In this document: in pieces, positions 964 to 48,899 of the stretch
Layout of the letters: the number at the start of each line of letters is the position of its first letter
Numbering within the stretch: position 1 is the first letter of the stretch
DNA from: Chiloscyllium plagiosum
Lineage: Eukaryota
DNA: 53,020 nt
Assembly: GCF_004010195.1 (NCBI RefSeq)
Contig: NC_057756.1
Coordinates: 7,670,473 to 7,723,492, forward strand
Direction: 5' to 3'
Notes under the pieces: model-generated
Database searches by the model: none
What the model was told of the DNA's origin: nothing
Seen by the model: only the letters and a program-made list of their open reading frames with translations
Made by a program: the position numbers and the translations under genes

Positions 964-2240
964 CTAATCTTCTGATCATGATTGCGGTGAAGATCCAGAG
1001 GTAAGTGGGCTCCAAGAATACTTACCCATGTTTGGAACAGGCAGATGTGAAAGGCTTTATGGCATGAAGTTTTCCCCATATGTAGAACTGTACCTGCAAC
1101 TGGGTTATTCTGGAGATTATATTATATTGATATTAACACTGCGCTATGAATCCAGTGATCCAGATAATGCTCTGTAGAGTCAGGTCTGAATTAAACTTTT
1201 TAAAAATGCATTTTAAAGACTAATTATGGCCATGAGACATAACATTTTCAATTGTTGCACATACCCATCTGATTCACTCATTGCCTTTAGGGAAAGTTAT
1301 CGGCAAAGTTTACCCAGTCTGGCCAAATGTAACCCAACCCAATATGTGAATGACTCTTTCCTGCCCTCTGAGCAATTAAGGATAGACAGTAAATGTCAAC
1401 TTAACCAACGATGACAACATTCCATAAATAAATGAAAATATAAGCCGAAATTGTATCTGAGCTGATATTCATGTAGCAGTGAGTTAATGGAAACCAAGTC
1501 CATATAATTAAAAATTTTTAAAAAGTCGCATTTTTGTGTAGACTTAATTGGTAAGACAACTATCCATTCTACCAACAATAGCAAAAGGCTGCAATAATTG
1601 CTTACATTTTTGCTTTGGATTGTCTCATTCATTGTAACAGAAATATAATTTCAAATATGAATCTATCATCTAGAGTGATGATGGGAAATGCAGGTGGAAA
1701 GCATGAGGGACGTTGTCTTTCATACATGACAATAAATATGCAAAGACTGCCTTCTGCACAAGACATTGTGAAAAGTCCCATTTACTTTACCAGTTCAAAG
1801 TCCCCTCCCCATCATCTCAAATGTATATACTCAACACCAATAAGCTGCCCCAAAGAAATAGAAAAACTGATCGACTATCACCGAGAGATCTTTGTTAGCT
1901 CCATTTATATTAAATGAATTCTCTGGCTGTTTTTTGAGCTGGAGTCAGAGACTCCATTTTTTGAGGGAAGATGCATAGTACCTTGACCGTGCAAACATGG
2001 GGATGTGGGGTCACTTGCAATAAATTAAGTTAGCCTTAAAAATATCCCATAACCAGTGTTCACTTGGCTAATTGCTTGCTGAAAGAAACAGAAAGTACGC
2101 TCCAGTCTGGAGATAATGACATTGTATAATTTTTAAACATTGTGCCTGAGTTCGAGTGACTCATATAAGTAGAAGCTTGCAAACAGCTTCCACCCTAACA
2201 AACCCACTTAGAATCCTTTATGTTTTAATAAGATTACCTC

Positions 2241-2505
2241 TGCAAGGTTTGTGAAGGTTTGTCGCTCAAGTTGAGGTTTCGGGTGTAGGTTTGCTCGCTG
2301 AGCTGTAGGTTTGATATCAAGACGTTTCATTAGCTGGCTAGGTATCATCATCAGTGGCGAAAGATATCCTGGAGAAAGATATAAATAGAAAGTAGGAGAC
2401 AACAGCTTCGCTTCACTTGGAGGTCGCCACTGATGATGTTACCTAGCCAGGTAATGAAACGTCTGGATATCAAACCTACAGCTCAGCGAGCAAACCTACA
2501 CACTA
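2241..2505. mobile_element. Palindromic Penelope-derived short element with two opposed hammerhead motifs
   Basis: Inverted arms ~2283-2360 and 2424-2501; flanking direct repeat aagattacctc (2230-2240, 2506-2516). Confidence 0.75.
2427..2466 (+). ncRNA. Minimal type I hammerhead ribozyme motif
   Basis: CCA CUGAUGA U GUUACCU-agcc-AGGUAAU GAAA CG UC UGG: conserved core, stem II, short stem I. Confidence 0.7.
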
Positions 2506-2609
2506 AAGATTACCTCACATTCTTCAAAACTCCATTGGTAGGGATACCACCATTCCAAACTTTCCTGATAAGACAACTGTCTCATCCTTGACACATTTTC
2601 TTCTTTTTC

Positions 2610-2910
2610 AAATATTCATTCACAAATGTGGGCATCTCTGGCAGCATTTATTGCTTAATTACCCAGAAACAGTTGATAGTCAATCATATTGCTTTAAGTC
2701 TGGAACACGCATAAACCGGACCAAGTCAGGATGCTAGATTTCCTTCCCAAAATGATGTTAATGAATTGGATCGATTTTCCCAAAAGTTGTCTCATGCTCA
2801 TCATGAGACGCCTCGCACCAACTTTTGTACTTTTTTTCATCATCTACCTTCTGCAAGGTTTGAACCCAGATGAACAGAAAACTGCCTGGGTTACCAGCTT
2901 AGCGATGAGA
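2610..2910 (-). mobile_element. Old SINE, second family (degenerate)
   Basis: Similar to 17380-17730 (attcattcac...gcagcatttattgc...tttccttccc). Confidence 0.5.
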
Positions 2911-3414
2911 GCAAGAGGTGATTGCATTCCATGTTTGTTGTTCAATACTTGCTTATGAATCTGTATAAGGTTAAGCTTGCTTTACACAGAGAATGTTATT
3001 GAAATAAGAGAGATTGATACATATGGGTTAACAGTAAACATGCTATGACTATTTTTAAGTATGTTCTTGAAAGCTTTTAACAATGTTTTTGTGAGCAGGA
3101 AGGAAATGAATGGCATTGATTTGGTCCCCGCAACTTGTTCAGTCCCGCAGGTACTTAACACGGAGGTAAGTCAGGATGGAGACTTTGACCTGCTCCAGAA
3201 GGAGATGGTCACATGATTTTATATATTGCTCTTGTACAATTTTAATTGCACATAATGAGAATTCCAGAGAATACTGAAGAACCGTGTTTGGAGGAGCTTT
3301 TAAAGCACGGCCTCATCGTTTCAGTCCACCAGCTGGGAGTGACCCCAGATGTTTTCATGGATACCTTCTGTACCAGGGATCTCTGATCAAATCAAAGTTG
3401 GTCATGCAGTTGTG

Positions 3415-11079: not shown

Positions 11080-11420
11080 CGTTTCAGCACAAGCTACACA
11101 TTAATTCCTAGTCCTACCTATTATTGTCAATTGTTCAGCTTCACTTCTGTCTTGGCCAGCTATCAATAATACCTTTGTCTGACTGTCTCTTTCTTCTCTC
11201 TCTTTCTGTGTGTGTGTGTGTGTCTCAGGGCTCTGTCTCCAATTTATTCATTTGATTACCCCCCACAAAACAAACTTTGACATAAATACCAATTTCCAGA
11301 GCTGCTATCAGTTCGGATGAAGACTCACCATGCTCGAAATATTAAGGCTACTTCCTTCTCACAGATGCACCCAGACCTATTGAGTTCCACCAGCAATTTC
11401 AGTTTTTGTTTCAACTCTCT
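11080..11420 (+). mobile_element. Degenerate Penelope-type terminal repeat with decayed hammerhead
   Basis: cggatgaagactcaccatgctcgaaat (~11314-11340) followed by cagatgc..cagacct..tgagtt..ccagcaatttc, resembling the other PLE ends. Confidence 0.5.
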
Positions 11421-16220: not shown

Positions 16221-16294
16221 GGTTTACCGACAAATATATGACTCAGACATTTGTGCAGGAGGAAAGTCATTTGCTGGACATTGCACAATGGGCA

Positions 16295-16525
16295 GCACAT
16301 ATTTAGTACTGACAGCTTGACAGTACAGCACTCCCTCAATACTGACCCTCGTATACTGCAGCATTCCCTCATAACTGACCCTTCAACATTTTGGCATTGC
16401 CTGAATAATAACCTTCTGATGTTGCAGCACTGCACAGTTCTGACATTGTGACATTGCAATACACTCTCAGTAATAATTCCCTTCAATTGCAGCACTCCCT
16501 CAGTAATGATCCCACTAACAGTGAA
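16295..16525. repeat. Degenerate 33-bp tandem repeat
   Basis: cagcactccctca.tactgaccct units, same family as 27716-28010. Confidence 0.75.
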
Positions 16526-22335: not shown

Positions 22336-22537
22336 TGATTCACTGATCCGTCCAGCGTGGATCACAGTTAATTTGAGTGCCTTGTTCGGTTGTTTCCGAA
22401 ACCTGCTCAGAGTCAGTCACAAAGCTGTAGGTCTGGGGTGACCTGTAGGTCTGAACTTAACTGGCTGTGGTTTTCCCAATTAACCATTAAACAAATGATA
22501 GTGACAAAAGAAGAAAAATAATACTCATTGTTTCATG

Positions 22538-25411: not shown

Positions 25412-25799
25412 GTACAATAGTATCTTTCAGAATGGGTGGATTTGGCATAACATGTTAATTTCTGAAACAGTTTTATCGTGTGGGTGGAATATTATATGGG
25501 TAGACAATATAAATATACATAATTCGATGAGGAAAAAATGTATATGACCTTCATCCTGGTGTTCATTGGCATTTATTATTCCCTAGTATGCATTTGAATT
25601 TTTCAAATTAAACTTGCATTCTAGTTTGCAGATTATCAATGATAATTTGATGGTTATATTGTTGTTAATGATATCTATATCATAGTGGATGTTTGAATAT
25701 TGAGTTCACAGTACTCATTTGACGTTGAATTAATGGAATAAGTTGTTTTGGTTCTCGTTACAGAGTTCACTGGAAGTCTAACTCATTTTTCTTATTCAG

Positions 25800-27521: not shown

Positions 27522-27523
27522 CT

Positions 27524-27664: not shown

Positions 27665-30600
27665 CTGTGGGAGGAGCAGAAGACATTAAATAGACAGATG
27701 TTCAATGTGAGGTCAATGCTGAGGGAGCGCCGCACTGTCGGAGGGTCAGTGCTGAGGGAGCGCCGCACTGTCGGAGGGTCAGTGCTGAGGGAGCGCCCAA
27801 CTGTCGGAGGGTCAGTGCTGAGGGAGCGCCGCATTGTCAGAGGGTCAGTGCTGAGGGAGTGGGCACTGTCGGAGGGTCAGTGCTGAGGGAGCGCCGCACT
27901 GCCGGAGGGTCAGTGCTGAGGGAGCGCCATGCTGTCAGACCGTCAGTGCTGAGGGAGCGCCGCACTGTCAGAGGGTCGTATTGAGAGAGCTGTACTTTTG
28001 GAGGGTCAGTACTCTGTGGGGAAGGGGGCTGGATTCCCCTGGAGGAGGTGGCGAATCAGAAAGCAGCAACCCTGCGCCACTGGGAGGGCGGTGGCCACTG
28101 CTGTTACTACAAGGAGAAAGTGAGGTCTGCAGATGCTGGAGATCAGAGCTGGAAATGTGTTGCTGGAAAAGCGCAGCAGGTCAGGCAGCATCCAGGGAAT
28201 AGGAGAGTCGACGTTTCGGGCATAAGCCTGAAGAAGGGCTTATGCCCGAAACGTCGATTCTCCTGTTCCCTGGATGCTGCCTGACCTGCTGCGCTTTTCC
28301 AGCAACACATTTCCAGCTGCTGTTACTACAACCCAACTTGCCAAGATCCAATCAGCCTCTTCTCCCCAAATTAGTCAGGATGTTCGTGGGGCATTGCCAA
28401 CTCCAGCATCATGAGGGGATGGTCTTGTCTCAGGAAGAGCTTGAATCCCCTACTTCCATTCACAATACCTGCCTGAAAGTGCTGGTCACAGTCCCCGAGT
28501 GGGACCAATAGCGATAAGGTTCCACTTGGAAAACAGGATGGGATCGGTAGGTTCGCAAGATCTTCCTGGCCCTGAAACAGAAGGTCATGGGGTCAGACCT
28601 TGGGAATTTAACATTCACCGCGTGTTCTTTATTCACTCACTGACAGGATATGAGTGTGTCACTGGACACACTGACAGAAGTCTCTGTTTACAGAGAGATT
28701 CTCTCCTTGAAAAAGGACATCCCTGATGAAGGGCTTATGCCCGAAACAACGACTCTCCTGCTCCTCAGATGCTGCCTCACCTGCTGTGCTTTTCCAGCAC
28801 CACACTTTTCAACTCTGTTTCGTTCTATCAGGGACAGCGTTTAACAAGGGACTTTCTCCTCTCTCTGTCAAGAGCCCTATTAAAAGAGGAAGTCTCTCTC
28901 TCTGTCTCTCAGGGACCCTATTTAAAAAGGGACTCTCTCCTCTCTATCAGGGACACTGTTTAAGGAGGGAGACTCTCCCTCTGCCAGTACAGTGTTTAAA
29001 GAAGGAATCTCTCTCTCTCAAGGACCCTGTTAAAAGAGGGAGTCTGCCTCTCTCTCTCAGGGACACTGTTTAAAGAGGACACTCACTCTTTCTATCAGAG
29101 ACATTGTTTAAGGAGGGAAACGGACAGTGTTTAAAGAGGTAGACTCTGTCAAGGGCTCTGTTAAAAGAGGGAGTTTTTCTCTCTCTGTGAGGACAGTGTT
29201 TAAAGAGGGAGTCTCTCTCTCTCATTGTCAAGAGCCCTGTTAAAAGATGGAGTCTCCCTCTCTCTCTCAGGGACACTGTTTAAGGAGGGAGACTCTCTCT
29301 CTGCCAGGACAGTGTTTAAAGAGGGAGTCACTCTCTCTCTGTCAGGGACCCTGTTAAAAGAGGGAGTGTCTCTCTCTCTCTGTCAAGAGCCCTGTTAAAA
29401 GAGGGGTTTTCTCTCCCTCTGTCAGGGGCCCTGTTTAAAGAAGGAATCTCGCTCTGTGACGGACCTTAGTAAAGAGGGAGTCCAACTCTCTCTCTCTCTG
29501 CCAGGACAATGTTTAAAGAGGGACGTCTCTCTCTCTTGACACGGGTCCTGTTTAAAAAGGAATGTCTCCCTATGTGAGGGACCCTGGTAAAGAGTGAGTC
29601 CATCTCTCTATCTGTCAAAGGCTCTGTTTAAACAAGAATCTCTCCTGCTGTGTCAGGGATGGTGTTTAAAGAGGGAGTCTCTCCCTGTCAGGTGTCCAGT
29701 TTAAAGGGGGACGACACTGGCTATATTTTCCCCAGCTGACCCCTCCTGATTTTTGACCACTCACCCCTTCCATTCATTTGTGGCGAGCAGGTATTGCCTT
29801 GAACTCTCTTTCCTGACGTCCAGCGAGCAAAATGTGGCAAACTCCTTCGCGATCTCCGCAGGAGTCGAACTCCAGCCTCGACGTACCTTCACCAAAAGGA
29901 TAGGAGGTCGCTCGGCCTGTGGGTCAGGCCCCGAGAGGGACTGGAAAATACAGCATTTACAGCCAGTGTCAACAATCGGCACACCCAGGATAACACTGTG
30001 TTAGAGACGGTGGAAAGCTCCCGCTACACTTAGCTGCCTGTACAGTGATTCATCAAACACACTCAGGACAGAGACAACATTGTGTTAGGAGATGGGACAC
30101 AGAACAATACAGCACAGGAACGGGCCCTTCGGCCCACAATGCTGTGTTGAACAGGACGCCAAATTAAACTAATCCCTGCTGCCTGCCCTTGTTCCATATC
30201 CCACCGTTCCTGCAGACTGAGCTTATCTAAAAGTCTCTTAGAAACGCTCCTGTCGTATCTGCCTCCACCACCACTCTTGGCAGTGGGTTCCACACTCCTA
30301 CCACTCTCTGTGTAAACATCCTGCCCCTCACATCTCCTTTGAACTTTCCCTCCCTCACATTGAACGCATGCCCCCTAAATTTAGACATTTTACTTTGGGA
30401 AAAGCATTCTGACCATCAACCCTATCTGTGCATCTCAGAATTTCATAGACTTTTTTCAAATCGCCCCTCAGCCTCCGTCACTCCAGAGAAAACAACCTGG
30501 GTTTTTTCCTGATTTGGAGATGCTGGCGTTGGACTGGGGTGTTCAAAGTTAAAAATCACACAACACCAGGTTACAGTCCAACAGATTTAATTGGAAGCAC

Positions 30601-33600
30601 TAGCTTTCAGAGTGTTGCTCCTACATCAGGTGGTTGTGGAGGACACAATTGTCAGACACAGAATTTATAGCAAAAGTTTACAGTGTGATGTAACTGAAAT
30701 TATACATTGAAAAATACTTTGATTGTTTGTCAAGTCTCTCATCTGTTAGAATGACCATGATCGTTTCGCTTCTTTCATATGTAAATCACGATTTATTTTT
30801 TAAAAGTTACATTCTCAGGTTAACTTTAACAATTGGTGTCAGCTCAGAAAATATGTTGAAGGTGTTAGCCCCCAGTTAGAGAACACTTCAGTGATCCAGA
30901 ACATTTGACCTCGGACCTTCGGGTGACCATCCTCCAAGGCGGACTTCGGGACAGGCAGCAGCGAGAAGTGGCCAAGCAGAGGCTGATCGCTAAGTTCAGT
31001 ACCCATAGGGAGGGCCTCAACCGGGACCTTGGGTTTATGTCACAGTACAGGTGACCACCATTGCACTATATACACACACACAGACATTCCACACACACAC
31101 ACATACAATCCTATAGACAGACACGCACACAGACACTCCCACACTCACATACGTGGACCCCTTTATACTCTCACACACACACATATACACTCACACAAAC
31201 CCACATGCACACATACACATAGATGTTTGTGGGGTGAATTTGTACTTGCAGAGTTACGTTGTACTTTGCTCAAAAACTGCATGAATCCATGTAAGACTCT
31301 GTTAACTCATTTTTTAGATTAGAATCAATCTAAACATTATGGCACAGACAAACGAACACCAATTGTTACAGTTAACCTGAGAATGTAACTTTTATAAAAA
31401 AAGTTTGTGATTTACATATGAAAGTAGTGAAACTATTATGGTCATTCTAACAGATGAGATACTTAACAAATAATCCAGGTCTTTTTCAATATATAATTTC
31501 AGTTACATCACACTGTAAACTTTTGCTATAAATTCTGTGTCCTATGATCTTATTCTCCACAATCACCTGATGAAGGAGCGTCGCTCCGAAAGCTAGTGTG
31601 CTTCCAATTAAACCTGTTGGACTATAACCTGGTGTTGTGTGATTTGTAACTTTGTTTTTTTCCAGCCTCTCCTTGTAGCTCCTCCTCTCTAACCCAGGCA
31701 GCATCCTGGTAAATCTCTTCTGCACTCTCTCCAAGGCCTCCACATCCTTTCTCTAAGTGTAGCGACCAGAATTGAACGCAATACTCTAAGTGTGGCCTAA
31801 CGAAAGTCTTACAAAACTGCAACATGACATTCTGACCCTTGTACTCAATTTCCTGACCAATAAAGGCAAGCATTCAACACACCTTCCTTACCCCCCCCCC
31901 CCTATCTACTTGAGTGGCTACAGAGTAGATTCAGTAAACAGTAAAGCATCCTCTAGACAAAAACAGAATTAAAGCCTGATGACACGGTCTCCATCAAACA
32001 CTCTCAGGTCAAAAACAGCATGGAGTTAGAGTAAAGCTCCCTCTACTCTATTGAAGTGAAGGTAACGTTTTCCCTACTGTCAAACTGTAAACTTCCCTCT
32101 GCTTCTTTCAACTGAAAGTAAAGCTTTCTCTACTCTTTTGAGCTGCAAGTAAAGCTGCCTCACCACAGTCCCCATCAAACACTCCCAGGAAAGGGACAGC
32201 ACGGGGTTAGATGCAGAGTAAAGCTCCCTCTACACTGTCCCCCATCAAACATTACTAGGACAGGGACAGCACGTGATTAGATACAGAGTAAAGCTCTCTC
32301 TACACTGTCCCCACATCAAACACTCCCAGGACAGGGACAGCACGTGATTAGATAGAGTAAAGCTCCCTCTACACTGTTCCCCATCAACATTCCCACTACA
32401 GGAATAACACAGGGTTAGACACAGATACAAACTCCCTCTACACAATCCCTCCTTCAAACACTCCCAGGACAGGGCCAGCACGGGGTTAGATTCAGAGTAA
32501 AGCTCCCTTTGCTGTGTTCGCCCATCAAATACTCCAGGACGGGACAGCACAGGGTTAGGTACAGAGTAAAGCCTCCTCTACACTGATCCCCCATCAAACA
32601 CTCCCAGGACGGGGACAGCATGGGGTTATATATAGAGTAAAGCTCCCTCTACACTGTCCCCCATCAAACACTCCCAGGACGGGGACAGCATGAGGTTACA
32701 GATACAAACTCCCTCTACACTGTTAATGAATGTGATGTGATAAATCACTTTGCAGTTTTGTCATTCCCTGAATGAAGGTGGACCCAACCTCTGGCGTCTT
32801 GGTTGGTCATGGTGGCAGAGTAGGTTTGTCATGTTGGAGTGAGGCTGCCGTGGAGAGAGCTCAGTTTCTGACATACTGACCCAGGATAGGACAGCTTTAA
32901 TTTGAAGGTTGTGTTGCCTTGTTCTGGGACACACACCAGAGGGAACCGTTCCTCTCCTGATTGACTGTCTGTCCTCATGGTGCCCTTTGAATGGATTTGT
33001 CAAGATCAACGCGGGCTTACAGGGATAGGTTGAGGGGAGTGGGTCTGGGTGGGATGCTCTTCATTTGTGGGGGTGGGTAATGGCCAGAGATCAGTGGGCC
33101 AAAAGTCCCCTTTCTGCTCTGTGGGGATTCTATGAATCCCTTGCTCATCCAAATGAACTCGGAACCTGAGGTGCAGTCTGTGTAAGAGGTCCCTGTTCAT
33201 TCATTTAACCCTTTTAGCTCCCAGGTTCATGTCTGCTGAATCTGCATGACCCCACATCTTTCTGAGGTCAGTCTGCCCTTCCTGTGGCATGCTGCCCAAC
33301 TGCTGATTGGACTTATTCCTGTCTCATGTATCGAGATCCAGTGAAAAGTGTTGTTTTCTGTGTCATCCCAACAAATCACCCCTTGGGTAACAGAATACAA
33401 AGCAGTGTGACAGCTACAGGGAGGCTGCAGAGAAAGACCAACTCTAATAAAAACACTGAAAATCGGTGCAGGAGTAGGCCATTCGGCCCTTCGAACCTGC
33501 CCCACCATTCAATAGGATCATGTCTGACCATGCAATCTCAGTATCCAATTCCCACTTTCTTCCCACACCCATTTGGCGCGGCACGGTGGCTCAGTGGTTA

Positions 33601-36600
33601 GCACTGTTGCCTCACAGCGCCAAGGATCCGGGTTCAATTCCCACCTCAGGCAATTGTCCGTGTGGAGTTTGCACATTCTCCCCTAGTGTCTGTGTGGGTT
33701 TCCTCCCACAATCGAAAGATGTGCAGGTTAGGGTGGATTGGCCATAGTGTTAGGCGCATTCGTCAGGGGTCAGTATAGGGTAAGGGACTAGGTCTGGGTG
33801 GGTTACTCTTCCGACGGTCGGTGTGGACTTGTTGGGCCGAAGGCCCTGTTTCCATACTTGGTCCCTTTAGCTACAAGGGCAATATCCAGCTCCCTCTTGA
33901 ATATATCTAATGAACCAGCCCCAATAGCTTCCTGTGGGAGAGAATTCCACAGGTTCAGAGCTCTCTGAGTGAAGACATTCTTCCTCATTGTTGTCCTGAA
34001 TTGACTTCAGGCTTTTATACGTTTCTATGAGATTATCCCCCTGACCCCTCAGCAAGTACAAGCCCAGAGGATCCAGGCTTTCTGCAGATGTCAGTCCTGC
34101 CATTCCAGGGATCAGTCTGGTGAACCTTCGCTGGACTCCTTCAGGAGCAAGAATGGCCTTCCTCAGACTAGGAGACCAAAACTGCACACAAGGTGTGGCC
34201 TCACCAAGGCCCTGGATAACTGCAGCAAGACCTCCTAACTCTGATACTCAAATCCTCTCGCTACGAAGGCCAGCATTAGCTTTCCCTGCTGTGCCTGCAT
34301 GCCAACCTTCAGCGACTGTTCCACCATGACCCCCCAGGCCCCGCTGCACCTCACTTTTTCCTAAACTGCCACCATTCAGATAACAATCTGCCTTCCTGCT
34401 TTTGCCACCTAACTGAATAACCTCACATGTATCCACATTATACTGCATTTTCCAAGTAGTTGCCCACTCAGCCAGCCTGTCCAAGTCACGCTGCATCCTC
34501 CTCACAGCACACACTGCCACCCAGCTTAGTGTCATCTGCAAATTTGGCGATACGGCATTCAATTCCTTCATCCAACTTGTTAATGTATATTATGAACAGC
34601 TGGGGTCACAGCACTGAACCGTGCGGTATCCCACTCCTCACTTCCTGCCATTCTGAAAAGGACCAGTTTATTTCAAATCTCTTCTTCCTGTCTGCCAACC
34701 AGCTCTCTATCCATGTCAATACATTGAGCTTTAATTTTCCTGACTAATCTCTTGTGCGGAACATCGTCAAAAGCCTTTTGGAAGTCCAGATATACAACAT
34801 TCACTGATTTATTCTTGTCTACTCTACTGGTCACATGCTCAAAACACGCCGAAAGATTTGTCAAGCACAATATCCTTTTAGTGAATCCATGCTGACTAGG
34901 CCCGATTCTGTCACTGCTTTACAAATGCTCAGTTATTACATCCTTAACAATTGACTCCAGCAATTTCCACGCCACCAATAGCAGGCTGCCTGGCCTATAA
35001 TTCCCTGTTTTCTCTTTCCCTCCTTTTTGTAAAAATGGAGTTACATTAGTTCCCCTCCAGTCCTTTGGGACTCTTCCAAGGTCTATAGAATGCTGGGAAA
35101 TGATCACCAATACATCCACTGTTTCTAAGGTCACTTCCTTAAGTACTCTGAGACACAGAGGTCATGTCCAATTTTAATCCCAATCTCCCCAATATCATTT
35201 CCTGACTAATAAGGATTTCCTTCATCTTCTTCCTCATGCTCTACTCTCTGGCCCCTAGCATTTCCGGAAGGTTACTTATGTCCTGCTTAGTGAGAGCAGA
35301 TCCAAAGTATTTATTTAACTGTGATGTGGAGGAGCCAGTGTTGGACTAGGGTGGGATAATGTTAAAAATCTCACAACACCAGGTTATAGTCCAACAGCTT
35401 TATTTGGAAGCACTAGCTTTCAGAGCGACGCTCCTTCATCAGGAAGCTGGGGAGCTAGTGCTTCCAAATAAACCTGTTGGATTATAACCTGGTGCTGTGT
35501 GATTAACTTTGTCCACCCCAGTCCAACACCGGCTCCTTCACCTCATGGCTACCACTAACCGCGTTCTCAAAGTGGAGAGGATTTCAAAGGAAATTGCACA
35601 TCTCGAGACATCAAAGTGCCCCACAGCTCCCTGAAGGAGGAGCAATGCTCCCATAACGAGTGCTTCCAAATAAACCTGTTGGACTATAACCTGGGTGTTG
35701 TGCGACTTTTAACTTTGTTCAAGGTCCGTTCATTAGTCTGATACCAGCGGGGAAGAAGCTGTTCATGAATCTGTTGGTACTTGTTTTCGAACTTTTATAT
35801 CTTCTGCCGGATGGAAGAGGGAGGAAGGGAGTAACCCGGGTTGGGAGGGGTCCTTGATTATTTTGGCTGCTTTCCCGAGACAGCGGTAAGTGTGGATGGA
35901 GTCGGTGGAAGGAAGGCTGGTTAGCGTGATGGGCTGGGCTGGGCTGTGTTTACAGCTCTCTGAGATTTCTAGCAGTCTTAGACAGAGCGATTGCCATTCC
36001 AAACTGCGATGCCATCTGGATAGGATGTTTGCTTGATGCTTCTGTAAGAATTGGTGTTCCAGTGTTTTGGGGAAGGAGAGAGGGCGGTAGGGTGTAGCCA
36101 GAGAGCTCCGTGTGTTTCGGATTGCACCCACATCCCGTTCCCGCGCGCTCCTGGACTCACCGTGAAGGAGACACGTGCTCTGATCATATTGACATTGTTC
36201 TCGTACGGCTTGAGTAGATCCAGATACTCCCCAATCCGTGGGGTTCGGGGATCAAAGAGGCTAGAGGAGGGGGGGGGGGGGGGGGGGAGGAAGAGAGACA
36301 GAAAAGGTCAGTGGGGAAGGAGATGAAGGTGATAGGTCAGGGAGGAGAGGGTGGAGGATAAAGTCCCATCACCATGCTTATGGTGCTGCCCCCCCTCCCG
36401 TCTCCGCGAGGGTCACCTGTTTGCAGGGAGGTTGACAGGGATTGAGTATTGTGGGAGCAGAATGACTGCGTCGGCTGGCACACAGTGTCCAATGGACCAG
36501 TGTGGGAAAGTGTGAGGGTATGCGCTCTGGCAGGAAGGACAGAGAGTAGACTATTTTCCACCCTGTATCTGAGGAAGGACATGCTGGTGTTGGAAGAGGT

Positions 36601-39600
36601 TCATAGGAGGTTAACAAGAATGACCCCAGGGTTGAAGGACTTGTCATTAGAGGTGTGGTTGGGGACTCTAGGTCTGCAGCCAATGGAGTTCAGAAGGATT
36701 AGAGGTGATCTCACTGAAACTGGGAAGCGAGTCTCGTAAGTGTGTAAGAATTGCAGGAGAGAGACACAGAGAGAGAGAGAGAGAGCATGAGTGCGGGAGT
36801 GAGACAGCGAGAGCGTGAGCAAGTGTCCTTGATGCACATGAGAGGGACGGGACAAGTGTCTCTGACTGTTCGCTTGTGATGGCCGGACCTACCTGCTCTG
36901 ATGGGTCAGCAGCAGCTGGGCCAACTGCAGCAAGACTGTAAAGAGGATGGAGACATGTTAATCTTCGCCTTCCGTCTCCCCACCAACCCATCACGTCTGC
37001 TGACAACGCTCCCCCCGCCCTGCCGCCTCTCCCCACAACTCTGGGAGCAGGGAGCCCTGGTTCCTGTTGTGAGAGACCGGGAAGGAGTGCAGACTGAAAA
37101 CCCAGTGTGCAGCGGAGCAGGCTCGCTATCGCACTGCCCTCCATCTCTCGAGACTCAACAGCGGACTGAAAACCTCACTTGTGAATGAAGCCTTCCCTGC
37201 CCCTTGTCCCATGCTCCCTCTCTCCCTCTCTCTCTCCCTCTCTCCCAAGAGGAAACAAGCTGACCGTAGAGTTTTTACAGCACAAAGACCGGCCTTTCGG
37301 TCTGCCACATCCAAGCCAGTCATCAAGCTCCTATTTATTCTAACCTCACAGCCTTGCGTGCTCAGGCATTTTACGTGGTCATATAAATATTTAAGAACCA
37401 TGCAGCACGGAAATAGACCCTTCGGCCCTCATCCAAGCCGACCAGGTTTCCTAAACTGAACTAGTCCCATTTGCCTGCATGTGGCCCATATCCATCTAAA
37501 CCTTTCCTGCCGACATACCCATCCAGATGCCTTTTAAATGTAGTAATTGTACCAGCCTCCACCACTTCCTCTGCCAGCTCATTCCATACACGCACCACCC
37601 CTCACCGTGAAACAGTTGCCTCCCCAGTGCTTTTTAAATCCTTCCCCATCCAACTCTGGGGAAAGGACCCTGGCTATTCACCTTATTTACACCTCTCATA
37701 TTTTTGTTAACCTCTACTAAGGTCACCCCTCAGCCTCACATGCTCCAGCCTATCCAGACTCTCCTTATGACTCAAAGCCTCCAGGGTCAGTAACTTCCTT
37801 GTAAATGTTTTCTGCACCCTTTCTGATTTCATAATATCCTTCCTAAAGCAGGGTGACCAGGACCTGTATGCATTCTTCCAAAAGTGGCCTCACCAGTGTC
37901 CTGTCTCTGTACTCAATGCTCTGACCGATGAAGGCAAGTGTGCCGAATGCCTTCCCTACCACTGCCTACCCCTGACACATTCTCAAGGAGCTACGTACCC
38001 AAAGCCCTCGCTCTCTCGGTTCGATAATACTCCCCAGGGCTCTACCATGAAGTGTATGAGTCCTGCCCTGGTTTGTCTGACCAAAATGCGACCCCTCGCA
38101 TTTATTTAAATTAGACTGTATCTGCCACTCCCTACAGCTGATCAACATCCTGCTGTACTCTGAGGTAACCTTCTTCACACTCTATTATACCACCAATTGT
38201 GCTGTCATCCACAAACTTACTAACCATGACTCCTGTATTCTTATCCAGATCATTGCTAAGTGGACCCAGCACCAGTCCCTGTGGAACACTGCTGATCATA
38301 GGCCTCCAGTCTGACAAACAAGTCACTCCGCTGCTTGGAGCGGAGAGCATGGTTCTGGCTCCATATACCTCCTATATTACACACATGGAGCACTGTGCAG
38401 AGTTCTGTATATCTTGGTAAGATCACATCTGGAACAGTGCGCACAGTTCCGGGTCTCCGTATTTATAAAAGGGCAGAGATTTATTTTATTAAAGGCAAAG
38501 ATTTTGATGCAAGTGCAAAAAAAGTTTGCTGAGACACCCCGGACATGGTGAGGTCAGAGGAAGAGAGAACAGACCAGACCTCTTGAAGTAGGCAGAAAGT
38601 ATGCCCTTTAAGATGAGAAAGGGCACTCGCTATAGCAGGGAGGGGTGGAGATAAATAATATTGGCACACTGAAGGGAGGAGAAAGTGAGGGCTGCAGATG
38701 CTGGAGATCAGAGCTGAAATTGTGTTGCTGGAAATGCGCAGCAGGTCAGGCAGCATCCAAGGAGCAGGAGAATCGACGTTTCGGGCATGAGCCCTTCTTC
38801 AGGAATGAGGAAAGTGTGTCCAGCAGGCTAAGATAAAAGGTAGGGAGGAGGGACTTGGGGGAGGGGCGTCGGAAATGCAATAGGTGGAAGGAGGTTAAGG
38901 TGAGGGTGATAGGTCANNNNNNNNNNNNNNNNNNNNNNNNNNNNNNNNNNNNNNNNNNNNNNNNNNNNNNNNNNNNNNNNNNNNNNNNNNNNNNNNNNNN
39001 NNNNNNNNNNNNNNNNNNNNNNNNNNNNNNNNNNNNNNNNNNNNNNNNNNNNNNNNNNNNNNNNNNNNNNNNNNNNNNNNNNNNNNNNNNNNNNNNNNNN
39101 NNNNNNNNNNNNNNNNNNNNNNNNNNNNNNNNNNNNNNNNNNNNNNNNNNNNNNNNNNNNNNNNNNNNNNNNNNNNNNNNNNNNNNNNNNNNNNNNNNNN
39201 NNNNNNNNNNNNNNNNNNNNNNNNNNNNNNNNNNNNNNNNNNNNNNNNNNNNNNNNNNNNNNNNNNNNNNNNNNNNNNNNNNNNNNNNNNNNNNNNNNNN
39301 NNNNNNNNNNNNNNNNNNNNNNNNNNNNNNNNNNNNNNNNNNNNNNNNNNNNNNNNNNNNNNNNNNNNNNNNNNNNNNNNNNNNNNNNNNNNNNNNNNNN
39401 NNNNNNNNNNNNNNNNNNNNNNNNNNNNNNNNNNNNNNNNNNNNNNNNNNNNNNNNNNNNNNNNNNNNNNNNNNNNNNNNNNNNNNNNNNNNNNNNNNNN
39501 NNNNNNNNNNNNNNNNNNNNNNNNNNNNNNNNNNNNNNNNNNNNNNNNNNNNNNNNNNNNNNNNNNNNNNNNNNNNNNNNNNNNNNNNNNNNNNNNNNNN

Positions 39601-42600
39601 NNNNNNNNNNNNNNNNNNNNNNNNNNNNNNNNNNNNNNNNNNNNNNNNNNNNNNNNNNNNNNNNNNNNNNNNNNNNNNNNNNNNNNNNNNNNNNNNNNNN
39701 NNNNNNNNNNNNNNNNNNNNNNNNNNNNNNNNNNNNNNNNNNNNNNNNNNNNNNNNNNNNNNNNNNNNNNNNNNNNNNNNNNNNNNNNNNNNNNNNNNNN
39801 NNNNNNNNNNNNNNNNNNNNNNNNNNNNNNNNNNNNNNNNNNNNNNNNNNNNNNNNNNNNNNNNNNNNNNGAAGAAGGGCTCATGCCCGAAACGTCGATT
39901 CTCCTGCTCCTTGGATGCTGCCTGACCTGCTGCGCTTTTTCAGCAACACACTGAAGGGAGCACTGGATTAAAACACGATGTAGAGAGAACACAGTGATGG
40001 GTGAGAAGAAGAGGGGGTAGGAGGAGTCGATGGACTGAGTGGTGTGTTTGTGTGATGTGAATGCCATTTTAACCCAAATGTTGAGGAATCTGATCCGCTA
40101 ACCTGTCCCACAGATAAAAGCATCAAATGCGGCTTCATGAGGATAGTCACTTTGAGCTGTAACAGAAAACAGAGAGATGGCGGTTAATTCATTTACCACA
40201 GTGTCTGTCACCCTGACTGATACCTCCCATCTATACACTGATTGACTCAGTCCCTCCTTTTTGTACACCAATACTCTTGGAAAAAGAACTTGACTGTTCA
40301 CCTTGTCTATGCCCCTCATGATCTTATAAACCTTTAAGGTCACCCCTCAACCCCCTCCCCTCCAGGGAAAGAAGCCCCAGCCTATCCAGTATCTCCTTAT
40401 AACCCAAACCTTCCAATCCCGGTAACATCTTTGTAGATCTTTTCTGTACCCTTTCCAATTTAATGCTATCCTCCCTATAACAGTGCTACCAGAGCTGTAA
40501 TGGTATTCTAAAAGTGACCTCACCAATGTCATGTACAGTCGCAAAATGACATCCCACCTCCTGTACCCAATACTCTGATCAACGAAGGCAAGTATGCCAA
40601 ATGCCTTCTTCATCACCCTGTCTACATGTGACACCACTTCAAAGGAAAAAAGTACCTGAACCCTTCGATGTCTTTGTTCAACAACACTTCCCAGGGCCCT
40701 TGACTTGCCTCACTAAAGTGCAACACCTTACATTTATCTAAACTAAACTCCATCTACCACTCCTCGGCCCATTGGCCCATCAGACCAAGATCCTGTTGTA
40801 CTGAGGTAACCTTCTTCACTATCCACTATACCACCAATTTTGGTGTCATCTGAAAACCCACTAACCACGCACCTTTTTTCTCATCCAAAGTGGTGGCAGA
40901 TGGAGTTTAATTCAGATAAATGAGAGGTGCTGCATTTTGGGAAAGCAAATTTTAGCAGGACTTATACACTTAATGGTAAAGTCCTAGGGAGTGTTGCTGA
41001 ACAAAGAGACCTAAAGAGACCTTGGCGTGCAGGTTCATAGCTCCTTGAAAGTGGAGTCACAGGTGGGTAGGATATTGAAGGCGGCGTTTGGTATGCTTTC
41101 CTTTATTGGTCAGAGTATTGAGTACAGGAGTTGGGAGGGCATGTTGCGGCTGTACAGGACATTGGTTAGCCCACTGTTGGAACATTGCTTGCAATTCTGG
41201 TCTCTTTCCTATCGGAAAGATGTTGTGAAACTTGAAAGGGTTCAGAAAAGAGTTACAAGGCTGTTGCCAGGGTTGGAGGTTTTGAGCTATAGGGAGAGGC
41301 TGAACAATCTGGGGCTGTTTTCCCTGGAGCATCGGAGGCTGAGGGGTGACCTTATAGAGGATAACAAAATTATGCAGGGCATGGATAGGATAAATAGGCC
41401 AAGTTTTTTCCCTGGGCTTGGGGAGTCCAGAAGTAGAGGGCATAGGTTTAGGGTGAGAGGGGAAAGATATAAAAGAGGTCTACGGGGCAACCTTTTCACA
41501 CAGTGGGTGGTATGTGTATGGAATGAGCTGCCAGAGGAAATGGTGGAGGCTGGTTCAATTGCAACATTTAGGAGGCATCTGGATGGGTGTATGAACAGGA
41601 AGGGTTTGGAGGGATATGGGCCGGGTGCTGGCAGGTGGGACTAGATTGGGTTGGGATATCTGGTCGGCATGGACGGGTTGGACCGAAGGGTCTGTTTCCA
41701 TGCTGTACATCTCTATGACTCTAAATGGTTGATATGAATGACAAAGGAGTCCCGTTCTCCTTAAACTCTTTGCCCAAGTTCTAGACATCCCCCATGAGAG
41801 GGGACATCAGTGTTCACTCTATCCAGACCCCGAGAATCTTACACATTTCAGTTCAATCACTTCTCCATCCCACATCCAATGGCTAAAGACCTAAGCTGTT
41901 CAACCTGTCCTCGTGGGATAACCCTTTCATCCTGTGAATGAGTGGAAAGAGACTTCCCTGAATTCATTCCAAAGCAATTCTATCTGTTCTGAAATGGGGA
42001 GGGACCAAACCTTATGGAGTTCCCCAGATGTCATCTAACCAACACCCTATTACAGCTGCAGTAAAACTTCCCCAATGTTTTTATCCCATTCCTCTTGCAA
42101 ATGGCCATAACATTTCGTGAGATTTTTCAAGCACTTATCATAGAACCCCTACACAGTGTTGAAGATGGCCATTCGGCCCATCGAGGCCACACCAACCCTA
42201 CAAAGAGCATTCCACCCAGACCTGATCCTCCTACCCTATCGCTGTAATCCTGCGTATCCCATGTCCAATTCACTTGACCTGCACATCTTTGGACTGTGGG
42301 AGGAAACCAGAGCACCCAGAGGAAACCCACACAGACACAGGGAGAGTGTGCAAACTCCACACAGACAGTCGCCCGAGACCGGAATCGAACCTGGGCCCCT
42401 GGCACTTTGAGACAGCAGCGCTAACCACAGCCACTATACCGCCCTGTAATACTCTCTAAGCGATCACGGTACAAATGATAAATTTCGCTGCCAAATTGTA
42501 TGCTCCCTTCATCCCAGTCACTGATATAGTTGAGAAATAATTAAGAACCGATCACTGGTCTTAGTGGTACTCTACCAGGGATAGCTAACCAGCTCAAAAC

Positions 42601-45600
42601 ATAAACATCTGTTCTCCTCTCTGCTTCCTGTAGGTTAAGCAATTCCTTATCTCTGAAAATATCTTAGTCTTGACACTATTCCTTCTTATTGTCTGTAGCA
42701 ACTTTTGATGTGGCTTTAACCAAGGGTAGGGTTTTCACGATGTAGATCTGTACGTCCCTCTCACCTCTTTGTTGCTCACTCTGTCTGTGTCTCTTTTTTT
42801 CCCTCTCCCTCCATCGTGGTTCTCCACCTCACTCATATTTTCTGTCCATCTCCCTATATCCTTCAGGCTATCTGTCTCCCTCCTTCAGTCCATCCAACCG
42901 TCCATCTCCCTCTGTCCTTATCCCTCTGACTTGCCTGTTCCTACATTGCCTGTCCATCCTTCTTCCCATTTCTCTCTTCCTCTCTGCCTCTTTCTCAGTC
43001 CATCTCTCTCCCTCCTTCCTTCCATCCTTCAGGCACTCTGCCTGTATTCCTGATGAAGGGTTTTTGCCCGAAACGTCGATTTTCCTGCTCCTCGGATGCT
43101 GCCTGACCTGCTGTGCTTTTCCAGCACCACTAATCCAGAATCTGTTTTCCAGCATCTACAGTCCTTGTTTTTACCTCCTTCCTTCCCTGTCTATCCATCT
43201 TCTTCCTTCACCCTCCGACTCTCTCATTCTCTAATTCTGCCTATCTCTCTGTGTCTGTCTATCCATCTGTCTGTGTCTTTGTCTGTCTGTCTGCCTCTCC
43301 GTCTGCCTATCTCTCGGACTCTCTGCCTGACAGTCTGTCTCTCTGTTTCCAGACCCTGAAGGGACGGGGAAAGGCAGTGACGTTACTCACAGTATCTCTG
43401 GCAGACTGCAGCGTGGTTCAATGTGGGTCCATGCTGGGCCAGGTCGATGAGCCGGCTAAACGAAAATGGAGCCAAGGACAGTGCAGACGGGTCAGCATTC
43501 AGACTGTGTTTCCATTCAGCATCCTTCCAAACCCTGCCCAACAGGCTGCCTCCCTCCCACAGCCCAGGCCAGGCTATGTGCAGGAACATCACCCCCACCG
43601 CTGCTCAATCTCTCACTCCGGATTCTTCCTGTTTTCAGGAGTCTGCGGAGAGGTTTCCCGGCCTCCACCCTCAGTCATCACCACCTCGACCATGCTTCCT
43701 CCATATTTAAAGGCACATTCACCCCGGACCCCATTCAGATTCGCAGGGACTCCCCGTCTCACATCAGCTTAATGTTAACATTCGGCCAATTAAATGTTCG
43801 CTTCCTCTGTGATCTCACCCCTCCCTCCCTATCTCCGTAACCCCCTCCAGCCCCTACACCCCTCCCTATCCCTGTAACCCCCTGCAGCCCCTACACCCCT
43901 CCCTATCTCTGTAACCCCCTTCAGCCCCTACATCCCTCCCTATCTCTGTACCCACACCAGCCCCTGCACCCCTCCCTATCTCTGNNNNNNNNNNNNNNNN
44001 NNNNNNNNNNNNCCCCTCCAGCCCCTACACCCCCTCCCTATCTCTGTAACCCCCTCCAGCCCCTACAACCCAGTGATTCCTAACTGCTCCGAACCTGGCC
44101 TCTTCCACATCCATTGATTCCCATCGCTCCATTGCAGCGGCCCCTTTAACCTCAGGAATGTCACCCCTGACCCTCTCTGCACTGCTCTCTCTTGTTCCCC
44201 CTATTAAGGGGGTGTCTCACAGCTAACACTGGCCTCTTTGACGAACGTTCGGTCATGCACTGGCACTGCCACCCTAATGCCACCAATTCCCAGGCGGTGA
44301 AAGTTTGACCTCTAACCTCATTGTGACCTGGGTTCCATTTACCTTTCAAGAGCAGCGTGAAGAGCGAAGAGATTAGGAATTCGGAGAGACAGAAACTCCT
44401 GTAAAACAAGAGGAAGGCACCATGTTTACCTGGATTCAACCCTCCAAACCTTCACACACACCCCCCCGTATCTGGGCAGCATGCTCTGTTCTGAAATGGT
44501 ACACTGTCGCATTGCCACCTCTGTCACTGTGGCACTGGGTCAGGATTGTTTGAGATAATTCACTGGCCACACATTGTCCACTATCTTTGCTGCATCTTGG
44601 GTTTGCCTGGTGACCACAAAGGAAGGGAAATGCCAAATTGGCCTTCAAAGCAAGAGGATCCAATATGTGTCTTGCAGAGATTCTTTCACTTGCAATCTAT
44701 TACCAACCTGATTTTCTCAGTCCACCTGCATATTGAAATCCCCCATGATCACTGTAACTTTACCTTTCCTACACCCCTTTTCAATCTCCTGGTGGATCTT
44801 GCACCCTAGCTCCTGGCTACTGTTTGGAGGCCTGTACGTATCTCTAATTAATGCTTTTTTATTCTTGCGGTTCCTCAATTCTACCCACAACAGATTCCAC
44901 ACCATCTGACCCTACTTCCTTTCTTACTGCTGAAGTAGTTTCATTTCCTACTCATTTCCTCTGCCCACCTGCCCATCTTTTTGATAGGATGTACATCCTT
45001 GAATATTCAGCTCCCAATCCTAATCCCCTTGCTGCCGTGATACCCACACGTCATACCTGCCGGTTTCAATCTGCGCCACAAGCTCATTTACCTTATTCCT
45101 TATACCGTATGCATTTAGATAAAACCCACTCAGTCCTGTATTAACTCTCCTCCTGCTCACTGTCACTGGTTTGTCCAGAATGCTTGAAGATTGATAGCTA
45201 ACCCTTTCCATACGCTCTGTCCAATTTGTGTCTGTGCTGAACATTTTAATAACCTCAAGAGTTCTGCACTGTTAACTCCTCCTTTAATTCAAGCTTTCTA
45301 ATTTCCCTGATCACTGCGCCTCCAAAAGTTATGCATTTACCTGCTTTATCTTATTGACTCTGTGCCAATTAGCCCATGACTCAGGTCGGAATCCGGAGAT
45401 TACCACCTTTTCGGTTCTGCTTTTTAATTGAACTTCTAGCTGCTCATGCTCCCTTAGCAGAACCTCTGCCCTAGTTTGTCTATGTTGTTGGAACCTACGC
45501 AGACCACAATCTTGCCCCTCCCACTCCAAGTTCCTCTGCAGCCCAGCTGAGAGATCCTGAACCTGAGCAGCAGGTTGGTAACACAACCCTGGGGACTCTC

Positions 45601-45884
45601 GATCCTGGTCACAGAGAACAGTGGCTCTGCCTCGAACTATTTTATCCCTAATTAAAACATTTCCCTTCTCTTCCCCCTGCTTGAATGGCTCCCTGCACCA
45701 CAGTGTTGCGGTCAGTCGGCTCATCCTCCCTCTGTCCCTACCATTCCTATATCTGGGGACATCTCCCACTCTCTCACTCTGATATCTGCAGCGATTTTCC
45801 TCCCCCCTATCCCACCCCCAACCCCTCTACCGAACAGGGGAGGTCGCTCTCTCCCTCCCTCCCACACTCCTATATCTAGGAAGG

Positions 45885-45918
<34 letters not shown>

Positions 45919-46072
45919 TCTCTCCCCTATAACTGGGGAAGTGCCTCTCTCTCTCTCCCTCACTCACTCACTCTCCCCTATAGCTGGGGAAGTCTCTCTC
46001 TCTCTCCCCCTCTCCCCTATAACTGGGGAGGTCGCTCTCTCCCTCCCTCCCACACTCCTATATCTAGGAAGG

Positions 46073-46106
<34 letters not shown>

Positions 46107-48899
46107 TCTCTCCCCTATAACTGGGGAAGTGCCTCTCTCTCTCTCCCTCACTCACTCACTCTCCCCTATAGCTGGGGAAGTCTCTCTCTCTCTCCCCCTC
46201 TCCCCTATAACTGGGGAGGTCGCTCTCTCCCTCCCTCCCACACTCCTATATCTAGGAAGGTCTCTCTCTCTCTCTCTCTCTCACACACTCCTATAACTGG
46301 GGAGGTTTCTCTCGCTCTGTCTCTCAGTCACAGTCCATGTATCTGGGAAGGTCTCTCTCTCTTTCTCTGTCACAGTCTCTCTATTTGGGCTGGCGGGTGA
46401 ATTCCTTACCTGTCTGGTCCTCTTGCTGATGTGTTTGGTGTCAAACACCGAGGGGAACAGCTTGTGGGTACTGGTCTTAAACTCAACAAAACTCTCTGAA
46501 AGGGAAACAGACGAACAGCTTCAGGCAGGGGGCACAGGGATGGCACAGCTGGAAAAGGACAGGGGAGAGCATGAGGTAGACTGGCACAGTGTGGCATGAG
46601 AGCAGGGAGACGCGAGTGGGAGAGAGGAAGAATGAGAAAGAAAGAATGACAGAAAGGGGGAGATAGAGGAGTGAGGAAAAGGAAAGACAAGAGGGAGAGA
46701 ACAAGGCATGGAATGGGGGGCCGACAGAAGACGGGCCAAGTGGCAAAGTGCTGTTTGACATGTCAAAGATAATCATCCACACAGTACCTGGTAGTGGTCG
46801 ATAAAACTTGTCGTGAAGGTACATCAGATCCAGGAGCATGTTATGTCCAATCAGAGGCTGTGGAGAGGAAAGTATCAGGTACGATAATTCACTCCATGTC
46901 AGCAGGGAACTGGGAAAAGAGGGAATGAAGCGAGAGCGAGAGAGAGAGCGAGCGAGCGAGCGAAATGGGGGGGGGGGGGGAGAGGAGTGACAGGGAAACA
47001 GAGACCGGCAGCCTGTGGGTGAGGAGGGATTGGGGAGAGAGCCTGGAAAACAGGGAGACAGAGAGCGCGGGGAGAGTCAGGGAAAGGGGAAAGTGAGATG
47101 TAGGAGTGAGGGGGCAGAGACAGAAAGGGACAAGGCGAGAAGAAAGAGGAGAGCGAGAGTGCGCAAGAGCATGAGACGATGCGTGAGAGAGCGTGAAAGA
47201 GCAAACTCTCTCTCTCCCCCTCTCTCAGCAGCAAAAATGTGCAACAAAAACAGCATTGAGACCCCTCCCCCCAACTCTTCTTTTAGAGAGACTCGCCCAC
47301 ATATTTCCCCAAGGACAGGGATAGAACGAGGTTAGATACACAGTAAAACTCTCTCCACACTGTCATAGAACGTGGAAGAGCACAGCACAGGAATGGGCCT
47401 TTTCGCCCACAATATTGGGCCAAACAGGACTCCAAATTAAACTAATCCCTTGGCCTGTCCTTAGTCCATTCCTTGCACATTATCTTACCTAAATGTCCCT
47501 TAAACCCCTTTTCGTATCTGCCTCCAGCACCATCCCTGGCAGCGCGTTCCAGACTCCTACCACGCTATGTAGAAAAACATGCCCCTCACACCTCTTTTGA
47601 ACTTTTCCCCTCTCACCTTAAATGCATGCCTCATAGTTTTAGATATTTTAACTCTGGAAAGATGATTCTGCCTGTCAACCCTATTAATGCATTGCAATTT
47701 TACAGACTATCAGTCTCCCCTCAGTCTGCCTCCAGCACCATCCCTGGCAGCGCATTCCAGATTCCTACCACGCTATGTAGAAAAACATGCCCCTCACACC
47801 TCTTTTGAACTTTTCCCCTCTCACTTTAAATGCATGCCTCATAGTTTTAGATATTTTAACTCTGGAAAGATGATTCTGCCTGTCAACCCTATTAATGCAT
47901 TGCAATTTTACAGACTATCAGTCTCCCCTCAGCCTCCGCTGCTCCTAAAAAAAAAATCTAGAGTTTTTCGAGCCTCTCGTTATAGTTCATCCTCTCTAAT
48001 CCAGGCTGCACCCTGGTAATCCTCTTCTGCACCCTCGCCAAAGTCTCCACATCTTTAAATGGGAGGGGGGTGGGGCTGGGGAGAAGGTAGCAAAGAATAC
48101 AAAGAGCTTTAGGGCAGAGGAGATGACTTGGGGGTTGCAGTGAGAGAGAGAGAGAGACTCACTGAGATTCTTGTGGAGAGAGGACGAGAACTTCTTCAAG
48201 GTAGGAATCCTTGCAAGAGGATTCGCACTAAGGTTAAAATTGGAGGCTCCCTGCCTCCATTCCTGATGAAGGGCTGAAACATCGATTTGCCTGCTCCTCG
48301 GATGCTGTGCTTTTCCAGCACCTATCTAATCTAGACTCTGGTTTCCAGCATCTGCGGTCCTCACTTTTGCCTAGCTGTGGTCCTAGCACTGGTCCCTGTG
48401 CTTATTCTGTCTGTCACATCCTGACAACCTGAAAATGCTACATTTATCTCAATCCTGTGTGTCCTACTGGAGAACCAATCCTCCGTCCACACAAACACCC
48501 TACCTCCCAGGTCACGAGGTTCGCTCCTGCCGCTCGGGACATATACCTTTTGGGATCTGATCAGCTCACGGAAGACTCGAGTAAAACCAAGTGCAGCCTC
48601 CAGCACCAGATCCACGCGACAACCATCTCTGAGCGAGTTCTCCAACTGTGCTCTTCTGGAGTAAGTGATCCTGTGAACGACAATCTGGGGAGGGGCGGCA
48701 AGAGAGAGGGGAGGAATGGCGAGTGGGGAGAGGCGGTGAGAGAGGGAGCAAGAGACAGAGAGATGGAGAGTGAGACAGAGAGAGAGACGCAAAGAGACAG
48801 AGAGATGGAGAGAGAACAAGGATGCACAGACAAGAGACAGTGGCAGAGATGTGACAATAAGGGAAAGGGAGACAGGTGGCCAGTGAGGAGAGAGAGTGT

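Follow-up and report, generated by a model that had tools for sequence, protein, structure and literature searches.

Hammerhead motifs in head-to-head insertions of a Chiloscyllium plagiosum contig as probable truncated ends of Penelope-like retrotransposons

What produces the mirror-image insertions carrying hammerhead ribozyme motifs in a 53,020-nucleotide stretch of Chiloscyllium plagiosum DNA (NCBI RefSeq assembly GCF_004010195.1, contig NC_057756.1, positions 7,670,473 to 7,723,492; here called the window)? The window is repeat-rich animal DNA with five gaps of N, and an earlier reading made from its letters alone, the sequence-only reading, had proposed at least three families (A, B and C) of palindromic, hammerhead-bearing mobile elements derived from Penelope-like retroelements. 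We favor, at a probability of about 0.8, an account in which the copies are 5'-truncated 3' ends (a pseudo-long terminal repeat, or pseudo-LTR, plus a tail) of Penelope-like retrotransposons that carry a minimal type I hammerhead as a passenger whose fold, by prediction, does not form in the inverted copies; the likely mechanism is nicking of both target strands and head-to-head joining of two complementary DNAs (cDNAs). Family B is demonstrably of Penelope origin, and families A and C are likely to be. The arrangement is of a known kind, described in 2014, and the window contributes new family members at high density in shark DNA.

All 13 motifs listed in the sequence-only reading are present, its coordinates marking the low end of each motif and in some cases including helix I. 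Two further motifs, a family B copy at 35631-35659 (+) and a decayed look-alike at 11314-11343 (+), bring its count of about a dozen in 53 kb to 15, mostly decayed. The minimal type I core (CUGANGA and an unpaired base, then GAAA, then UH) has no mismatch in eight of the 15, and in six of these it is accompanied by an unbroken helix II of at least 4 bp, opened by G10.1, and a palindromic helix III. A strict descriptor of core, helix II and palindromic helix III matches the window six times, against a mean of 0.023 and a maximum of 1 in 300 dinucleotide shuffles; when helix I of at least 2 bp is also required there are four matches, against none in 300 dinucleotide shuffles. Helix I is 3 bp long in the motifs beginning at 2430 and 31567, and 2 bp followed by a U-U mismatch in those beginning at 38802 and 43050. 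An Rfam scan of the window, taken up to E = 1, matched no hammerhead family and gave seven weak matches to microRNA (miRNA) precursors, all below the gathering score and mostly on palindromes. The fold-backs at 35373-35497 and 28178-28287 are among the sequences with weak miRNA-precursor scores; they are an annotation trap and might give rise to hairpin small RNAs. No loci were returned by exact-pattern scans of either viral or metagenome contigs.

The identity of the motifs as minimal hammerheads is upheld by their match to the consensus of Penelope-like elements in Fig. S3 of Cervera and De la Pena 2014 (PMC4209133). The published motifs share the CUGANGA box, one unpaired base, a G-opened helix II, GAAA, a palindromic two-base helix III, UH and a short helix I, and they too occur as many families per genome, mostly as single motifs or opposite-strand pairs. 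Those pairs lie 100-700 bp apart, and about 4,000 copies are given for the coelacanth and about 9,000 for the frog (PMC4209133). The stem layout of family C is close to cnidarian rows of that alignment, whereas helix I in the window copies, unlike the published ones, is only 2-3 bp long before the first mismatch. In the alignment of Fig. S3 and in Table S1 we saw no cartilaginous fish row, nor one that was identical to any of the three families.

The sequence-only reading also held that the core is kept while the stems covary. Three unrelated stems do surround one core, and this speaks for selection on the fold in the parent elements, although it is not covariation within an alignment, and two-sided changes within families were not found. 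None of eight helix pairs changes on both sides among six copies of family B, and none of seven among four copies of family C (three gapped, deleted or partial C sequences being left out), few copies in either case. The two family A copies differ by changes that break pairs, and no compensatory change appears among the 40 variants listed, of 120, for family C in the public contigs described below.

The link to Penelope is carried by family B. Along one strand of its largest copy, 22880-24187 runs from endonuclease to hammerhead to tail. The broken end of a Penelope-like open reading frame (ORF) at 22880-23390 (+), with stops and frameshifts, comprises a region that follows the reverse transcriptase (RT), a C-x4-C-x2-C linker finger and a GIY-YIG endonuclease with two cysteines between the halves of its motif. 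A Pfam scan of this 93-residue remnant gave no recognition; its identification depends on its homologues. It is 66-73% identical to its top five shark proteins, its best relatives are proteins of Chiloscyllium and Hemiscyllium, and 26 of 31 candidate relatives were accepted. Four relatives were scanned for domains: RVT_1 was found in three, upstream of the endonuclease (two above the curated cut-off), and a weak GIY-YIG in one. These relatives place the family B endonuclease downstream of a Penelope-type RT. A second C-terminal endonuclease remnant lies at 30872-31048 (+), within the insertion 30502-31663.

By the definitions of Craig et al. 2021 (PMC8557442), family B is on its sequence features of Neptune or Nematis type, not Poseidon or Naiad. 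With the Neptune clade it shares a C-terminal GIY-YIG domain with two cysteines between GIY and YIG and, in both remnant and relatives, an upstream CX2-5CxxC finger; 5' truncation, an inverted copy and a tail on one end are also described for that clade. This likeness concerns family B only, of which fragments remain, and the linker finger is common to Nematis. A further comparison is PAc, which belongs to the Poseidon elements and comes from the green anole (Frangieh et al. 2024, PMC11167929); in it a hammerhead at the end of the pseudo-LTR is likewise followed by a tail, 3' ends are fixed and no RNA reads end at the cut. Family B differs from it in its linker finger, which Poseidon lacks. 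In family A an AUG at the start of helix II opens a frame of 37 codons to the tail end; PAc also has an AUG at this position followed by an open frame, a resemblance only, since the family A peptide matched no real protein.

The sequence-only reading had extended the Penelope link to all the motifs, which holds for family B, continuous with its GIY-YIG remnant, and found no protein tie in our searches with A and C. Two matches of the family A peptide were rejected as repeat proteins scoring by summed weak matches. A stretch at 48095-48232 (-), considered as a candidate beginning of a family C ORF, had no relative at E up to 0.01 (atlas score 0.78). It falls in an open frame on the minus strand, 48045-48243, directly upstream of the copy at 48263, so that a Penelope ORF beginning there would be in inverted position. 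In the family C copies at 28228, 28723, 38802 and 39869, loop II contains an AUG from which a reading frame stays open across the cut site and the tail; the copy at 43050 has UUG. By analogy with the anole element, this loop II AUG could be an ORF start.

How are the copies arranged? Ten of the 13 listed motifs sit in inverted arrangements and nine lie within a target-site duplication, in line with the claim that most copies occupy inverted-repeat insertions with such duplications. The duplications are exact at 11, 13, 15 and 14 bp, with an 8-bp T-run around 30508-31655 as a fifth. All five duplication-bounded inverted insertions bear a tail of 33-42 nt on one end only. The combination of 5' truncation, an inverted copy, a target duplication and a one-sided tail of 30-40 nt recurs in five of six inverted insertions, across families A, B and C, the exception being the family B fold-back 35322-35546.

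Family A is represented by a single insertion, 2230-2516, bounded by an 11-bp duplication (2230-2240 and 2506-2516), with arms at 2277-2360 and 2424-2507 and a 36-nt tail, 2241-2276, on the left arm only. Its hammerhead at 2430-2463 (+) is intact, with 7 bp in helix II, 3 bp in helix I, an ACGU palindrome and a predicted cut after 2463, while that at 2321-2354 (-) has an intact core and two of seven helix II pairs broken. The arms differ at 5 of 84 positions; all five differences are transversions, unusual for neutral decay, and RT or sequencing errors are possible.

In family B, the copy at 22525-24197, of about 1.65 kb, has a 13-bp duplication and an inverted arm, 22540-22879, followed by the sense segment 22880-24187, which ends in a tail of about 33 nt; its hammerheads are decayed, one at 22581-22609 (-) with G12 lost and one at 24068-24096 (+) with three core mismatches. 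The insertion at 30502-31663, of about 1.15 kb, lies inside another repeat, has the T-run duplication and a 34-nt tail on the left only, and carries a motif that has lost A9 at 30601-30629 (-) and an intact hammerhead at 31567-31595 (+) with 5 bp in helix II, 3 bp in helix I, an AGCU palindrome and a predicted cut after 31595. The fold-back 35322-35546 holds the hammerhead 35414-35442 (-), and its right arm begins at the helix III palindrome. The extra copy at 35621-35721 (+) contains the decayed motif 35631-35659, with four core mismatches.

Family C includes the fold-back 28098-28331, with a 15-bp duplication, arms at 28147-28228 and 28237-28318 (80 of 82 positions identical) and a 34-nt tail on the left only. 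At its center the left arm stops within helix II and the right arm begins just 5' of the core; the hammerhead at 28228-28255 (+) keeps core and helix II, the inverted arm having taken the place of its helix I 5' strand. The insertion 38665-39960, by inference one element across a 954-base N gap, has a 14-bp duplication, a tail on the left only and hammerheads at 38775-38802 (-) and 39869-39896 (+), the latter with its first two bases inside the gap. The remaining copies are not inverted: a solo copy at 28719-28815 (+), with motif 28723-28750 and a broken helix III, that starts about 4 nt before the core, and two variant copies with tails, 43031-43176 (+), whose hammerhead 43050-43077 is intact with 2 bp of helix I, and 48244-48372 (+), whose motif 48263-48283 has lost the 3' half of helix II. 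The copy at 28723 has a doubtful 8-bp duplication candidate, and no convincing target duplication was found for 35322-35546, 43050 or 48263. The look-alike at 11314-11343, with a different helix II and a pyrimidine-rich stretch before it (within 11200-11420), had no second copy in the window and is possibly a fourth hammerhead family.

In family C the paired arms disagree at 2 of 82 and 2 of 80 positions; in family B the counts are 33 of 296 and 47 of 329 (11-14%). The sequence-only reading had called the whole system recently active, which suits the near-identical arms of family C but not family B. Family C alone would be young, if both arms were made at insertion; gene conversion between arms could also lower the differences.

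These features suggest the following mechanism. The element's GIY-YIG endonuclease would nick both target strands 11-15 bp apart, and the cDNA primed from each nick would begin at one or the other of two fixed positions on the element RNA, so that one arm includes the tail and the other lacks it. Both cDNAs would stop early and join head to head by short microhomology, leaving an inverted repeat and a target duplication, with insertion length set only by cDNA extents (0.2 to 1.65 kb here). Processing of a full-length parent's transcript by the hammerhead would take place in dimers or be assisted by the element's protein. Two cDNAs from staggered nicks, joined head to head, would together account for mirror arms, a tail on one side, a target duplication and a center that varies. 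Nicking and extension of two strands, the two start sites and protein-assisted cleavage are taken from published work: the one-ended tail is described for Penelope elements (PMC3846280; PMC8557442), and in the anole both strands of the target are cut and extended by the element, with two start sites bracketing the tail (PMC11167929). That the two cDNAs are then joined is what we infer here. The anole hammerhead is dispensable for insertion in vitro and cleaves only with the protein (Frangieh et al. 2024, PMC11167929).

Could the hammerheads act within these copies? Folded alone, four of the six intact motifs form helix II with a probability of 0.84-1.0, and helix I forms in 2430 only. In the whole element, helix II of 2430 and 31567 falls from 0.84-0.99 to 0.00, and that of 28228 and 35442 is at most 0.05 both alone and in the whole element. 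Across the four inverted elements folded whole, helix II probability is at most 0.04 and the mirror arm pairs with the motif. The inverted layout offers no dimer partner, because the two motifs lie on opposite strands and are predicted to base-pair with each other. When two molecules were folded together, by a program that cannot score the core, the lowest-energy form was not a double hammerhead for any of four motifs. The inverted copies are thus predicted to be inactive as ribozymes, their fold being blocked in these models.

Family C could be followed beyond the window by mapping to the stretch 38670-38916, whose sense is on the minus strand and whose cut lies between 38775 and 38774. The contigs come from two runs (X15 and X17) of one organism in one study, not shown to be the window's species, and what follows draws on the 18 loose ends listed of 785, the 15 joints listed of 54, the 12 listed of 55 in a further joint table, and the 40 listed variants. 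The stretch is matched by 75,616 contigs in X15 and 55,370 in X17, numbers that point to a very large family and are not a copy number. At least 1632 and at least 1628 contigs end at a fixed 3' point, 38676-38678, against mixed long flanks (agreement 0.33-0.35), and this is where the window copy meets its target duplication. On the 5' side, at least 269 and at least 283 contigs share a boundary at 38806, which lies at the helix I edge, four bases ahead of the core, with flanks of median 255 letters that agree at 0.31; depth falls several-fold across 38796-38822. Further loose ends are listed near 38721, and none of those listed is at the cut site. Of eight opposite-strand joints listed, five have one side at 38804-38812 and the other variable.

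Within the motif, the listed variants fall in loop II, at N7, at two CpG sites, one of which is G12, the general base of the hammerhead (PMC6155905), and at 38772. The variant at 38772 closes the U-U mismatch of helix I; it accounts for 12% and 18% of the depth in contigs and is present in 149 of 1831 RNA reads. The joints 38809-38773 and 38806-38771 link the two strands of helix I, and one of them is a 37-nt head-to-tail duplication of the hammerhead only (1 contig). Other joints between the helix I strands reach a depth of 145, their kind not given; they are hammerhead-only tandems or snap-back junctions. In an RNA run (X19) from another, related organism, 3292 reads match family C, on both strands, and 93% run on into unlike sequence; read starts or ends do not pile up, at the cut site or elsewhere, a weak test in fragmented poly(A) libraries. 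These reads look like read-through of scattered copies. A second run of that sample (X20) yielded zero matching reads and so carries no weight, and for family B a search of sequencing runs listed no RNA run, which tells neither way.

Several points weigh against our account. The window contains no full-length element or RT sequence of families A-C, and no real protein relatives were found for the A and C peptides (37-47 residues, from copies too short or cut by gaps). The fold-back 35322-35546 has two tails and no duplication was found for it, which the simple model does not predict. The folding results are equilibrium predictions, and a hammerhead in the first-transcribed arm, such as 35442 (-), could fold before the mirror arm exists. 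The 38806 boundary shows that truncation is not random, a bias explained neither by two-cDNA joining nor by self-priming. Finally, Arkhipova et al. 2013 attribute such inversions to self-priming, from palindromes at inverted junctions (PMC3846280). In that version the elements are the same and the mirror arm arises by snap-back of one strand, not from two primed cDNAs; we consider it a serious competitor, though clearly the less probable. The junction at 35453 falls on an AGCT palindrome, and seven of the 12 rows listed in the further joint table begin at 38804 or 38806, four of them connecting to 38771-38773 in the opposite helix I strand by joints of unstated kind. Yet pure snap-back cannot yield the 28228 junction, whose right arm has core sequence absent from the left arm, the one-ended tail is better matched by two start sites, and the anole protein extends both strands in vitro (PMC11167929). 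The sequence-only reading, for its part, had treated the fold-backs of about 200 bp as elements of their own class, and one could suppose a separate non-autonomous type copied whole by Penelope enzymes. Two of the elements are indeed only about 220-290 bp long and non-coding, with clean 11- and 15-bp duplications, and mobilization in trans via pseudo-LTRs has been published (PMC3846280). Whole-unit copying is nonetheless improbable: every palindrome center in the window is different, the same design occurs with arms from about 80 to more than 1000 nt, and the listed inversion joints in contigs vary on one side (38710, 38724, 38734, 38757, 38795), with one to four contigs per run each. The short fold-backs look instead like the short extreme of ordinary 5'-truncated insertions.

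The 38806 boundary raises a different option. It may be a real stop point, a place where subfamilies diverge upstream, or a site of microhomology with AT-rich targets, and the anole enzyme prefers ATT (PMC11167929). A splice acceptor is not favored, there being no AG before 38806 in the window copy and the flanks being mixed. One tentative proposal, which we rate as unlikely, is that family C cDNAs stop most often at the helix I 5' edge and not where the cut falls, giving a hammerhead-plus-tail mini-element of about 130 nt, which would insert singly or in a head-to-head or head-to-tail layout; the fold would then serve as a structural boundary for RT or for joining, apart from cleavage, and such units could be seeds of animal retrozymes. 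Equally doubtful is the related view that family C includes a unit of this size, from the helix I edge to the tail end, already spreading alone and able to dimerize head to tail as an early non-LTR retrozyme. The loose ends at 38806 with mixed flanks, the drop in depth, head-to-tail joints from 38805 to 38677 (4 and 2 contigs among those listed) and the start of the window copy 28719-28815 at the same helix I edge all fit it. Animal non-LTR retrozymes are likewise non-coding, derive from pseudo-LTRs, carry type I hammerheads and are present in one chondrichthyan (PMC7229834; bioRxiv 10.64898/2026.07.22.740005). Theirs are head-to-tail arrays, whereas the window copies are solo or head to head, with no tandem hammerhead repeat among them, and head-to-tail joints are rare in the contigs. 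A circle made by the ribozyme would, moreover, join at the cut site 38775/38774 and not at 38805, the boundary could reflect upstream subfamilies or joining to AT-rich targets through a local ATT, and the contigs are of uncertain kinship to the window. Our literature search, mostly of titles and abstracts and covering few subscription journals, found no paper about Penelope hammerheads of sharks or about insertions truncated at helix I. It is very improbable that some copies are active ribozymes cutting host transcripts, for example of the immunoglobulin-domain (Ig) gene at about 25.8-26.2 kb. In its favor, four motifs retain the core, helix II and 2 bp or more of helix I, and family C is transcribed in the related organism. 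Against this, published monomers do not cleave and dimers do so weakly (PMC4209133), cleavage was seen in one of nine frog dimers (Li et al. 2026, bioRxiv 2026.07.22.740005), the anole motif requires its protein (PMC11167929), the nearest same-strand pair, 28228/28723, has one broken partner, and the RNA reads are two-stranded, mostly continuous into unlike sequence and free of pile-ups.

Other features of the window include an exon-like Ig V-set domain at 25742-26278 (+), whose best Pfam match is Ig_CD22 (E 4e-8). It may mark a CD22/Siglec-like host gene, whose introns may hold the nearby B and C copies. A 33-bp minisatellite occurs at four sites and on both strands (27700-27980, 49650-49940, 16280-16400 and 51960-52080), and three other tandem arrays, at 28820-29700, 31980-32720 and 45830-46380, have units of about 39, 70 and 40-47 bp. 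A 208-bp tandem duplication at 47517-47932, with 99% identity, is a recent duplication or an assembly artefact.

Taken as truncated ends of Penelope-like retrotransposons, the copies extend a known pairing of RNA and element to shark repeat families. The significance is chiefly one of annotation: the palindromes can pass for miRNA precursors or miniature inverted-repeat transposable elements, and Rfam misses the motifs. The helix I boundary is the only lead that we consider worth following. With very many copies in shark genomes, the junctions form a natural record of where RT stops relative to the ribozyme.

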